The notes under the pieces were generated by a model that was not told where the DNA came from, did no database searches, and saw only the letters and a list, made by a program, of their open reading frames with translations. Position numbers and translations under genes: made by a program. From Chlamydiia bacterium (GTDB lineage: Bacteria > Chlamydiota > Chlamydiia > Chlamydiales > GCA-2402025), in contig JAUICV010000001.1 of the NCBI GenBank assembly GCA_030427725.1, forward strand, positions 605,298-669,297: 64,000 nucleotides of DNA, written 5' to 3'. Each line of letters opens with the position of its first letter. Position 1 is the first letter of the stretch. Positions 33,577-35,394 of this stretch are shown piece after piece.

Positions 33577-34284
33577 ATGTTTGATTTACCACCCCAAATG
33601 ATAGAACAACCAGATATCAACACAAGCTTTATCGCTAAGGCTGAGTTAGATGAAAGCTTTTCAAGTGAGTATTCTTACAAAGCGGTTCGCTCTATCATGC
33701 AAGAAAAATCTAAAGAAATTTTAGAGCTTTACAAAGATGGCTTTCAGTGGTCGGATGTGGCTGCTATTTCAGGTATTACTTTGGAATTTTTAAAAAAATA
33801 CCAAAGCGTCACGCTCGAAGAAAAAAAAGAAATGATCATGACAACCCTTATCGATTTGATTGATACAACTGACACCCCCTATTTACCAGATTCGTATACT
33901 GATCCGCTCTTTAAAGCAATGGTTCCACCTCTAATTGATATTTTGTTATCTGCTGATGCTGGGATTTTAGAAATACTTCCTCATATTTCAGACGAAAAGC
34001 CTAGCCCTAAAACATTTCAAACTTATGCAAATGAACTTAAAGCTTCTTTTGGTGATGGTTTCCAATGGTCAGATCTTGGGGTCGCTTTAAAATCATCAAT
34101 AGAATTTGTGTCGGGATATCACAACTTAACCAAAGATGAAAAGAGGCAATCAACTGTCGATATTGTAAATTTCATCATAGATGCAACCGATATGCCAATG
34201 CTGCCAGATATGTTTCTTGATCCTATTTTCAAAGCACTTTTAAAACCAATGGTAGAAAAGGTCTTTGATTATCTCTATCCTTGA
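33577..34284 (+). CDS. hypothetical protein with two 'DGFQWSD...TDTPxLPDxFxDPxFK' modules (paralog A)
   Basis: ATG 33577 with GGAGG 5 nt upstream (the ORF track starts at GTG 33565). Starts MFDLPP. Two ~95-aa internal repeats. Own terminator. Confidence 0.65.
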   Translation: MFDLPPQMIEQPDINTSFIAKAELDESFSSEYSYKAVRSIMQEKSKEILELYKDGFQWSDVAAISGITLEFLKKYQSVTLEEKKEMIMTTLIDLIDTTDTPYLPDSYTDPLFKAMVPPLIDILLSADAGILEILPHISDEKPSPKTFQTYANELKASFGDGFQWSDLGVALKSSIEFVSGYHNLTKDEKRQSTVDIVNFIIDATDMPMLPDMFLDPIFKALLKPMVEKVFDYLYP

Positions 34285-34293
34285 GTTAAAGAT

Positions 34294-34323
34294 ATGGCCT
34301 CAGTTTTTTTGAGGCCATTTTTC
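34294..34323 (+). terminator. rho-independent terminator
   Basis: ATGGCCTC-9 nt-GAGGCCAT followed by TTTTT. Confidence 0.6.
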
Positions 34324-34443
34324 TCACAAACCACAAGAAAACAATTTTCTTGAAATTAATCAGTAAAAATTTAAAAGATGTGTTTATCTCGCGATTCTGA
34401 AGCTATTGGAAGCGCGTTTTTAATATTAAACCAAGGAATAATC

Positions 34444-35394
34444 ATGTTAGATTTACCACCGCCAAATCCCCCAGCAGAAACTGCACCGCCAACTCATTTA
34501 GAACAAGTTGTAGTGCATACTGAAGAAGACACTTCTCTTCTACCTCAAGAAGAATCTTCTGTTGAAACTAAAACAAGTGAATCTACAGATTCTAGAGATG
34601 TGGTTACTAACGATGATAGTACTGCACCACCAACTCTTTCAGAACAAGTTGTAGTGCATACTGAAGAAGACACTTCCCTTCCACCTCAAGAAGAATCTTC
34701 TGTTGAAACTAAAACAAGTGAGTCTACAGATTCTAGAGATCTGCTTACTAACGATGATAGCACTGATAGTGCTCATTTGGAGTTAGTAGAAGCACCTAGT
34801 GATGATGATTTATTAGCTCGTGCAAAAGAACTCAAAGCTGTTTTTGACGATGGTTTTCAATGGTCTGATCTAGCCTCAATTGTACGACAATCATATGATT
34901 TTGTTGTAAAATATCAGGATCTATCTGAAGAAAGAAGACAAGATGCTGTTATTGGTATTATTTCTCATCTTATTGATATCACCGATACACCGTATCTACC
35001 AGACCGATTTACAGACCCATTATTTAAAGCGATGGTTCCACCATTTGTTGAACTCTTCGGTAATTCTATAGCTGGCAACTTTGAAAAGCTTCCTACACCT
35101 GAATCAGAAAAACCTACAGGTGAAGATCTTATCGAATTTGCACAAAAACTAAAAAGCACCTTTGAAGATGGATTTCAATGGACTGATTTAGCAACGGTTG
35201 TAAATTCTTCAATGCAGTTTATTGGATCCTTTCCATTTCTTCCAAAAGAAGAGAAGAAAGATTGTGTCATCGAAATTGTTAATCATCTAATTGACATTAC
35301 CGATACACCTAAACTTCCAGATAACTTCATTGATCCAATCTTTAAGTCAGTGGTTCCGTCTTTTGTAGAAATTCTTTTTGAAAAAGCATTCTAA
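34444..35394 (+). CDS. hypothetical protein with two 'DGFQWSD...' modules plus an acidic tandem repeat (paralog B)
   Basis: ATG 34444 with aagga SD (the ORF track starts at 34378). Starts MLDLPP. Same two-module architecture as 33577-34284, preceded by 2 x 47-aa E/S/T/D-rich repeats. Confidence 0.65.
   Translation: MLDLPPPNPPAETAPPTHLEQVVVHTEEDTSLLPQEESSVETKTSESTDSRDVVTNDDSTAPPTLSEQVVVHTEEDTSLPPQEESSVETKTSESTDSRDLLTNDDSTDSAHLELVEAPSDDDLLARAKELKAVFDDGFQWSDLASIVRQSYDFVVKYQDLSEERRQDAVIGIISHLIDITDTPYLPDRFTDPLFKAMVPPFVELFGNSIAGNFEKLPTPESEKPTGEDLIEFAQKLKSTFEDGFQWTDLATVVNSSMQFIGSFPFLPKEEKKDCVIEIVNHLIDITDTPKLPDNFIDPIFKSVVPSFVEILFEKAF
34480..34761 (+). repeat. in-frame tandem duplication, 2 x 141 bp
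   Basis: Units 34480-34620 and 34621-34761 differ at 9 positions by my hand alignment. They encode (T)APPT(H/L)..EQVVVHTEEDTSL(L/P)PQEESSVETKTSESTDSRD..TNDDS. Confidence 0.85.

Follow-up and report, generated by a model that had tools for sequence, protein, structure and literature searches.

Two adjacent genes on the forward strand of the window, a 64,000-nucleotide stretch of a Chlamydiia bacterium contig, encode acidic proteins that each contain two copies of the same small helical module. The module belongs to an undescribed family that is new at the level of both protein family and fold assignment. The reading we favour, with a probability of roughly 0.35, is that these proteins are exported, pseudo-dimeric binding scaffolds at the bacterium-host interface. 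The chlamydial two-module core would be a covalently fused pseudo-dimer, because phages and giant viruses carry the module as a single copy, and the acidic and aromatic end of the modelled helix bundle would be where a partner or ligand binds rather than a catalytic site. The proteins would be exported from the bacterial cytoplasm and function where bacterium and host meet. One subfamily would exit via Sec and the subfamily in the window independently of Sec, most plausibly by type III secretion guided by a conserved N-terminal peptide.

Gene 1 (33577..34284) encodes a 235-aa acidic two-module protein (P0017) with a pI of 4.4. Its start was set at the ATG at 33577 by homologues that begin M-x-D-L-P-P; the mechanical ORF list opens the gene earlier, at the GTG at 33565. 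The Shine-Dalgarno sequence GGAGG (33567..33571), read from the sequence, lies 5 nt 5' of the chosen ATG. The N-terminal peptide MFDLPP (33577..33594) is followed by a disordered stretch to about residue 33, module A (33694..33975, residues ~40-133), the linker LPHISDEKP (33976..34002) and module B (34009..34269, residues ~145-231). Module A carries the motifs DGFQWSDV (33736-33759) and IDTTDTPYLPDSYTDPLFK (33859-33915), and module B carries DGFQWSDL (34054-34077) and IDATDMPMLPDMFLDPIFK (34177-34233). An intrinsic-terminator-like hairpin and T-run (34294..34318; 10-bp stem with 5 G-C pairs) lies 3' of the gene.

Gene 2 (34444..35394) encodes a 316-aa acidic two-module protein. We placed its start at the ATG at 34444 (MLDLPP), which is the start used by homologues; the mechanical ORF (P0001) starts at the ATG at 34378 and is 22 residues longer. 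It has its own Shine-Dalgarno sequence, AAGGA (34433..34437), and the same arrangement of module A (34804..35085; DGFQWSDL at 34849-34872 and IDITDTPYLPDRFTDPLFK at 34972-35028), linker LPTPESEKP (35089..35115) and module B (35122..35385; DGFQWTDL at 35167-35190 and IDITDTPKLPDNFIDPIFK at 35290-35346), followed by an intrinsic-terminator-like hairpin and T-run (35409..35435; 12-bp stem). All the elements reported in the preliminary description were thus present: paired adjacent genes, each with its own Shine-Dalgarno site and terminator, M(F/L)DLPP starts, two modules of ~95 aa apiece and LP..S(D/E)EKP-type linkers between them. One feature it had overlooked is a tandem repeat in gene 2 (34480..34765), consisting of two copies of a 141-bp unit (Tandem Repeats Finder: 93% matches, score 509). 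This repeat encodes the acidic, Ser/Thr/Glu/Pro-rich N-terminal linker of the protein, and each unit carries the conserved peptide APPT(H/L)(L/S)EQVVVHTEED (34483-34518 and 34624-34659). The N-terminal peptide is thereby part-duplicated in gene 2 (APPTHLEQVVVH).

Alignment of the four modules gave 19 invariant columns (DGFQW.D, F, ID.TD.P.LPD, DP.FK). Modules A and B of gene 1 share 36% identity (E 4e-21), and the products of genes 1 and 2 share 44% identity over 191 aa (E 5e-61). These values, together with hundreds of homologues, rule out chance similarity or non-coding ORFs, an explanation that the Shine-Dalgarno sites, terminators and confident structure predictions also contradict and whose probability we put close to zero. 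Searches recovered 56 close relatives and 293 by profile. Among two-module relatives, the best match of an A module was another A in 119/126 and that of a B module another B in 114/126. Since modules match those in the same position best, the internal duplication came before the gene duplication, as had been proposed from the four window modules. The internal duplication is older than the chlamydial radiation, and the gene duplication is confined to a Simkaniaceae-like subclade.

AlphaFold2 modelled the module pair of gene 1 as eight helices (pLDDT 85.5, pTM 0.78), with the four of module A at residues 34-51, 60-72, 80-97 and 105-128, and a single-module model of gene 2 module A likewise gave four helices (pLDDT 83.9). 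DGFQWxD falls in the loop between helices 1 and 2, and IDxTDTPxLPDxxxDPxFK in the loop between helices 3 and 4; in the models, both motif loops are at the same end of an up-down four-helix bundle. From these features we defined a family signature, [DN]-G-phi-x-phi-x-D in loop 1-2 and I-D-x-T-D-x-P-x(3)-D-x(3)-D-P-x(2)-K in loop 3-4. Both motifs are present in each of the four window modules, with helices positioned accordingly in the models. In an alignment of 83 sequences, the loop between helices 3 and 4 was near-invariant (I, D, T, D, P, D, D, P, K) in all three branches, chlamydial, phage and giant-virus.

Such strictness across phages, giant viruses and chlamydiae is unusual for polar residues (D, T, D, D, D, K), and the D-x-T-D-T string resembles metal-coordinating motifs, so that an enzyme using the conserved Asp, Thr and Lys of both loops as its active site has to be weighed. 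We consider this very improbable: the module is a small four-helix unit for which no cleft-forming elements are predicted, and no enzyme family or fold was matched in Pfam, NCBIfam, the PDB by profile, or Foldseek. Moreover, in several members (e.g. P0051 and P0054) the motif of the second module has decayed while that of the first is intact, a pattern that fits a binding repeat better. The strong conservation of loop residues (Asp-Pro helix caps, Gly, Pro) could reflect a structural role instead of a binding site.

The module had been described as unrecognised, and searches of Pfam, NCBIfam, PHROGs and the PDB, by sequence and with Foldseek, bore this out. The best Pfam-A scores were 12-14 bits against curated cut-offs of 22-31, an NCBIfam scan of the window proteins returned nothing, and the best PHROGs matches reached only E 0.007-0.2. 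A PDB profile match to RNA polymerase subunit F (E 0.11) was rejected as spurious. Foldseek against the PDB gave nothing significant with either the two-module model or a single module. Against BFVD it gave giant-virus matches of single-module size (probability up to 0.99, E 0.35 or worse), a weak lead that was later confirmed by sequence evidence. The CopN, MxiC and YopN gatekeepers resemble the window proteins in having tandem four-helix modules (helical X-bundles) behind an N-terminal secretion region, and Foldseek listed CopN (6gx7_G) and MxiC (2vj4_A) for the two-module model (E 1.2 and 2.9; probability 0.16 and 0.09; TM ~0.2). We rejected membership of this family because the scores were insignificant, the matches were gone in the single-module search and no HrpJ or TyeA Pfam match was found. 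A literature search for the module motifs found no paper. Unannotated families are common in environmental chlamydiae.

The nearest homologues, and a common gene order, were found in Simkaniaceae or Ca. Parasimkaniaceae-like MAGs (PMC9666466), in agreement with the earlier attribution of the DNA to a chlamydial genome. The two-module family is Chlamydiota-wide and occurs in many environmental lineages, whereas a motif-based scan suggested that cultured chlamydiae (Simkania, Parachlamydia, Protochlamydia, Waddlia and Chlamydia) may lack it. It is not lineage-expanded as first described: there are two copies in the window and one in most of the fetched chlamydial loci. Upstream of gene 1 lies a gene for a membrane-anchored alpha/beta hydrolase (32630..33460, forward strand; 276 aa; Pfam Hydrolase_4/Abhydrolase_1), which we report as context only. 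The order of hydrolase, module gene or genes and convergent GH63-like gene is common to the window and three other loci (L001, L002 and L058), and the window hydrolase is orthologous to that of L058 (38% identity, E 6e-65). Only the Simkaniaceae-like hydrolase is orthologous; alpha/beta hydrolases near the module gene in other clades and in the phage contig L027 are unrelated. A conserved operon partner was therefore rejected, as neighbourhoods are kept only within clades. Across the window and 28 fetched chlamydial loci, the neighbours (peptidase, hydrolase, glycosidase, DapB, PRTase, BrkB and others) look metabolic, and no type III secretion gene or chaperone adjoins any copy. Linkage to the type III apparatus is not obligatory for chlamydial effectors.

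Single-module homologues were detected in five contigs of uncultured tailed phages (L027, L028, L041, L049 and L052; hhalign 99.9%, E 1e-31) and in two marine Nucleocytoviricota contigs (L055 and L056; P0168 family; hhalign 99.3%, E 3e-20). No homologues were found in GenBank phages (50,697 records) or PLSDB plasmids. The phage proteins are ~105 aa long (e.g. P0129, P0199 and P0206) and share with the window proteins DGFQ.xD, IDETDTPWLPDxxTDPLMK and a KG-x-phi-x-phi tail as in chlamydial A modules, but they have one module and lack both the MxDLPP peptide and the linker. In L041 the order is terminase, a small lipoprotein-like ORF, the module gene, portal, an unmatched ORF and major head protein, and in L027, L028 and L052 the module gene follows tail-fibre genes. 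Most neighbours of the phage homologues belong to no family, and no function was derived from them. Some phage members matched PHROGs annotated as holins (phrog_6918 and phrog_2609; E 0.009, 0.11 and 0.17 over ~40-55 residues). A holin relationship was rejected and these weak matches treated as noise, as there is no transmembrane segment and the Pfam holin families were unmatched.

The giant-virus proteins retain the core of the loop between helices 3 and 4 (ID.TD.PG.D...DP..K), but their DGFQW loop is degenerate, with the Trp not conserved, and their N-terminus is acidic and of low complexity. Their genes sit among those for viral RNA polymerase subunits, TFIIS and D5 primase. At their C-terminus the giant-virus copies have a polybasic tail in which a Cys is invariant; this suggests a lipid anchor, consistent with action at membranes in a eukaryotic cytoplasm. 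Phage and giant-virus homologues were likewise without an above-threshold match in known-family scans. They also lack a signal peptide and presumably act in a cytoplasm, which indicates that the domain does not need export. Comparison of single modules with A versus B modules (51 versus 73 closer) gave no clear answer as to which they resemble. Judged by this distribution of sequences, the module is not chlamydia-specific and is an old, mobile domain. The preliminary description had expected the family neither to be widespread outside host-associated bacteria nor to have a known housekeeping function. The first part stood only in part, as homologues occur in phages and giant viruses but none from a free-living bacterium was seen among the relatives found; no housekeeping function emerged.

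Read from MxDLPP, the window proteins contain no transmembrane segment or signal peptide and no hydrophobic h-region, as had been stated. Their conserved N-terminus consists of M-x-D-L-P-P, about ten residues on T/H-x-E-Q-V/I-V/I, and then a disordered linker, often repetitive, whose length differs between members. In 47 homologues Pro5 was at least 90% conserved, and the peptide motif was present at residues 2-4 in most members versus 2% of shuffled N-termini. Residues 1-30 of gene 1 are predicted to be disordered (pLDDT 43-52), as a type III secretion signal would allow, yet they hold this sequence-conserved peptide, which would be atypical of such a signal. Type III secretion of the window proteins would be a plausible route, and a role as secreted effectors a possible one. 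Since type III signals are normally without sequence conservation, the MxDLPP peptide may serve a purpose other than secretion. A beta-clamp-binding motif (QLxLxL) was also considered for MLDLPP and dropped, as position 6 is usually Pro or polar.

The same peptide could instead dock a bacterial partner, if the window proteins derive from a phage accessory gene that Chlamydiota acquired early, that then underwent internal duplication and whose product now acts inside the bacterium, with the Sec subfamily a later re-targeting. The lack of a signal peptide or transmembrane segment, the conservation of the N-terminal peptide, unlike typical secretion signals, and the housekeeping or metabolic neighbours would fit such a cytoplasmic protein, and the single-module homologues in tailed phages, between terminase and portal genes in L041 or after tail-fibre genes, would fit its ancestry. 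Against this ancestry, there is no sign of a prophage or recent-transfer island around the two genes: the flanking genes are cellular, none of them is a phage gene, the window has no tRNA, and GC is flat (33-40% across 30-39 kb) with no compositional anomaly at the two genes. The location of other members also argues against a cytoplasmic role. A Sec-type signal peptide, called by a crude hydropathy rule and inspection, replaces MxDLPP in 21/126 two-module representatives, which form a coherent subfamily. P0112 combines a signal peptide, two modules and a GH81 glucanase, while in P0103 and an ORF of L015 a ~600-aa unmatched domain is followed by two C-terminal modules; P0103 opens with a signal peptide, and its N-terminal domain had no match in the PDB or Pfam. 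The Sec-type subfamily and the secreted-glycosidase fusions indicate that the module works outside the cytoplasm too, and the subfamily and the glucanase fusion lend the secreted-effector idea indirect support. In addition, acidic linkers that vary and expand by repeats typify surface or secreted proteins more than others, and the homologues in giant viruses point to a role of use inside eukaryotic cells as well. We therefore regard a purely bacterial, cytoplasmic function as possible but somewhat unlikely.

Both the exported scaffold that we favour and its cytoplasmic counterpart leave room for a more specific form of the binding face, which could hold in either compartment. By analogy with annexins, and in mechanism only, the loops might bind a cation, Ca2+ or Mg2+, with Trp, Phe and Leu inserting into phospholipid and the two modules making the protein bivalent. 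Asp, Thr and aromatic or aliphatic residues abound in the conserved loops, which lie at one end of the bundle, the family proteins are acidic (pI 4.2-5.0), and the polybasic tail with its invariant Cys in giant viruses is typical of lipid-anchored membrane proteins. Members with and without a signal peptide would be expected if the ligand is present on both sides of a membrane. The analogy with annexins extends only to the repetition of small helical modules whose acidic loops share one face. An annexin repeat has five helices and a GxGT...D/E motif, and the window module has neither. No annexin similarity was detected in sequence or fold (Pfam, PDB profile, Foldseek), nor any to C2 domains or known lipid- or metal-binding domains. 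The DGFQW Trp that would insert into the bilayer is not kept in the giant-virus branch, and the case is an argument from composition only. We consider cation-dependent membrane binding improbable.

A bolder version of the exported scaffold, to which we likewise give low odds, is a host-directed device of ultimate phage origin that was swapped between chlamydiae and giant viruses in shared protists, would dock a conserved eukaryotic membrane or host factor by its loop face and would be delivered by type III secretion via MxDLPP ... EIEQIV. If this were true, MxDLPP ... EIEQIV would be a rare case of a motif for type III targeting or chaperone docking that is conserved and can be recognised in the sequence. 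Three kinds of intracellular parasite have the domain, which makes it a good candidate as a general tool of host or membrane interaction. The MxDLPP and Sec N-termini also represent a natural experiment in how chlamydiae could route one scaffold to different compartments.

Outside the coding regions, a box 5' of gene 2 (TTCTTGAAATTAAT, 34347..34360) occurs once in the window, and in L001 and L002 a near-identical box lies 5' of the orthologues of both genes. This box is a candidate -35 region of a promoter that would be gene 2's own. A palindrome 5' of gene 1 (GTTTGATcaaaATCAAAC) was dropped, as it is not kept in orthologues. The hairpin at 35409-35435 lies between convergent genes and may serve both.

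The two genes are adjacent open reading frames on the + strand of the window. Guided by homologues, we set the start of gene 1 at ATG 33577 (MFDLPP) and that of gene 2 at ATG 34444 (MLDLPP). Reading of the sequence placed a Shine-Dalgarno site 5' of each gene (GGAGG, 33567-33571; AAGGA, 34433-34437), and a G+C-rich hairpin with a T-run lies 3' of each (34294-34318 and 35409-35435, all +). The inter-module linkers LPHISDEKP and LPTPESEKP were both found. With all of these elements located, the tandem two-gene, four-module layout proposed in the preliminary description was confirmed. 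The four ~95-residue modules could be aligned with 19 invariant columns. Modules A and B of gene 1 are 36% identical (E 4e-21), and identity between the genes across both modules is 44% (E 5e-61); chance similarity was excluded as an explanation. The pair is conserved and expressed-looking, and encodes acidic (pI 4.2-4.4), helical proteins that begin with a conserved peptide, continue into a disordered linker prone to repeats, and end in two homologous four-helix modules.

A box, TTCTTGAAATTAAT (34347-34360, +), lies ~85-95 nt 5' of gene 2 and occurs once in the window. It is nearly unchanged 5' of the orthologues of gene 2 and gene 1 in the related loci L001 and L002, and is probably the -35 region of separate promoters. 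An 18 bp palindrome, GTTTGATcaaaATCAAAC (33530-33547, +), lies ~30 nt 5' of the gene 1 Shine-Dalgarno site. It is not conserved in L002 or L058, L001 has another palindrome instead, and it is likely due to chance in AT-rich DNA.

Gene 2 also contains a tandem repeat overlooked in the preliminary description, with two 141 bp copies (34480-34765, +) that are 93% identical. The repeat encodes an acidic Ser/Thr/Glu/Pro-rich stretch and duplicates the conserved N-terminal peptide (APPTHLEQVVVHTEED / APPTLSEQVVVHTEED); a degenerate third copy, DSAHLELVEAP, follows it. The same linker shows independent repeat expansions in the homologues P0002 and P0025, the latter with several ~29-aa units, indicating that the linker evolves via repeat gain.

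The module had been described as unrecognised, and wider searches extended this description. The window proteins had no NCBIfam match and reached at best 12-14 bits in Pfam against cut-offs of 22-31; PHROGs gave no convincing match to the module, and a 47-sequence profile gave a best E of 0.11 against PDB sequences. Type III gatekeepers (CopN/MxiC), annexins and holin-annotated PHROGs were each considered and rejected as families for the module. Its nearest relatives are phage and giant-virus single-module proteins, themselves unnamed. The family is undescribed, and it is unusual in occurring in chlamydiae, phages and giant viruses alike. DGFQWxD lies in the loop between helices 1 and 2, and IDxTDTPxLPDxxxDPxFK, nearly invariant in all branches, in the loop between helices 3 and 4. 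In an up-down bundle both loops would lie at the same end. An enzymatic role for the module is very unlikely.

To order the duplications, the modules of 126 two-module relatives were separated and the best outside match of each was scored. A modules matched A in 119 cases and B modules matched B in 114, so the internal duplication is older than the radiation of the chlamydial family. The gene duplication is much younger, in agreement with the order originally proposed. Apart from the window, only L001 (sponge-associated Chlamydiae bacterium O_S4.2_37) and L002 (NORP81) have an established tandem pair. Two more may be P0005 with P0009, listed under an equal longest contig of 55,571 bp, and P0006 with P0013, likewise at 48,465 bp. 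L058, from a Simkaniaceae MAG, has a single module gene in the syntenic position of the window pair, between an alpha/beta hydrolase and a convergent GH63-like glycosidase. Since O_S4.2_37 has been assigned in or near Ca. Parasimkaniaceae / Simkaniaceae (PMC9666466), this synteny suggests that the window falls in the same neighbourhood of Chlamydiota.

A word-indexed search returned 56 relatives, almost all of them two-module proteins (195-468 aa, most ~230 aa) that lack a Pfam domain; the named ones came from Chlamydiota MAGs. Scanning 185,579 species genomes for a motif gave 26 loci, mostly titled as chlamydial MAGs; the remainder, labelled Verrucomicrobia, Aerophobetes or 'uncultured bacterium', were taken to be chlamydial too. 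None came from a cultured genus, which suggests absence of the family from such genera in a scan that hung on one motif. When 1.84 billion representatives were searched exhaustively with a profile, 293 proteins reached E <= 1e-3, and three branches appeared among the best 150: two-module chlamydial, phage single-module and giant-virus single-module. The module itself is thus not restricted to chlamydiae; the two-module architecture with an MxDLPP start is. The proposal of a lineage-expanded chlamydial effector family found only partial support. This search also returned a fourth architecture, P0181 (287 aa), in which a transmembrane anchor at the N-terminus is combined with a single module and an unrelated C-terminal region of ~140 aa.

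The phage proteins (~105 aa, start MAExT; hhalign 99.9%, E 1e-31 against the window modules) are encoded in tailed-phage contigs; none was found in 50,697 GenBank phage records. In L041 the gene order is terminase, small lipoprotein-like ORF, module, portal, unmatched 269-aa ORF and major head protein, and in L027, L028 and L052 the module gene follows tail-fibre and 2OG-oxygenase genes. The small L041 ORF (5419-5652, -; 77 aa), directly 5' of the module gene, has a lipoprotein-type signal (..LLITGC) and no family match, and may be a small lipoprotein, spanin-like or otherwise. Two or more ORFs 3' of the module gene, L049 (2521-6984) and L052 (1-638) encode a protein of at least 1,488 aa with scattered matches to helicase, endonuclease, recombinase and portal PHROGs, perhaps a portal interrupted by an intein, perhaps a fusion. 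Giant-virus copies, in marine contigs, adjoin viral RNA polymerase subunits, TFIIS and D5 primase (hhalign 99.3%, E 3e-20); fold matches in BFVD, to Marseillevirus-like and Megaviridae proteins, point in the same direction. In the giant-virus copies the N-terminus is acidic and of low complexity, and the C-terminus forms a polybasic tail in which one Cys is invariant. Cation-dependent membrane binding, argued from this lipid-anchor-like tail and the loop composition, is unlikely; it would be a more specific version of either an extracytoplasmic or a cytoplasmic role.

An M-x-D-[LIY]-P-P-like start is present in 75 of the 126 two-module representatives, with Pro5 at least 90% conserved; shuffled N-termini give 2%. 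A crude hydropathy rule with inspection called Sec-type signal peptides in 21 of the 126. These proteins match one another best (51/63 top-3 matches) and so form a distinct subfamily, several members of which are fusions. P0112 joins a signal peptide and two modules to a GH81 beta-1,3-glucanase domain (Pfam E 2.7e-39), and P0103 has a ~600-aa unmatched domain between signal peptide and modules. A module-bearing L015 ORF of comparable length (841 aa) comes from the same MAG as the L001 tandem pair. Together, the predicted signal peptides and fusions indicate that at least one subfamily has the module working outside the cytoplasm. Our tentative reading, with a probability of roughly 0.35, is that the two-module core would be a pseudo-dimer, formed by fusion from a single-module ancestor such as phages still have, that its two conserved loops would form one acidic and aromatic face binding a partner or ligand, and that the proteins would act outside the bacterial cytoplasm. 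One subfamily would use the Sec route; in that of the window the conserved N-terminal peptide may guide export by a Sec-independent route, for which type III is the most plausible candidate. Near the module genes of the loci compared, no gene for a type III apparatus or chaperone was found. The main rival, only slightly less probable, is that the protein descends from phage and stays in the cytoplasm, where its N-terminal peptide would dock to a partner in the bacterium.

GC content is flat, and the window contains no tRNA, Rfam element or phage gene. Neighbours include an M16 peptidase, a SnoaL-like protein, an alpha/beta hydrolase, a GH63-like glycosidase and an amylase-family enzyme. Across the phylum the neighbourhood differs from clade to clade, one having a ManC-like cupin, BrkB, a PRTase and three unmatched ~300-aa genes, another DUF5399 and DapB. 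The alpha/beta hydrolases of different clades are mutually unrelated, and a common partner role was rejected. Glycan-related genes are plentiful across 24877-46408: a sulfatase (24877-26793), the GH63/MGH1-like glycosidase (35433-38111), a glucose-dehydrogenase-like gene (41457-42761), an EamA transporter (42823-43770) and the alpha-amylase-family enzyme (43757-46408), in an order partly common to L058. Just downstream of the GH63-like gene, adjacent ~500-aa paralogues without a Pfam match (38275-39786 and 40011-41510, both -; 30% identical over 449 aa, E 9e-42), the second with a lipobox-like N-terminus (..LFCGCEQ), constitute another unannotated tandem family. A further unannotated expanded family was seen in L012, L005, L008, L013, L017 and L020, from Anoxychlamydiales- and Parachlamydiales-type MAGs: after the module gene, and on the strand opposite to it, come three tandem ~300-aa paralogues without a Pfam match (about 6.6-9.4 kb in each locus).
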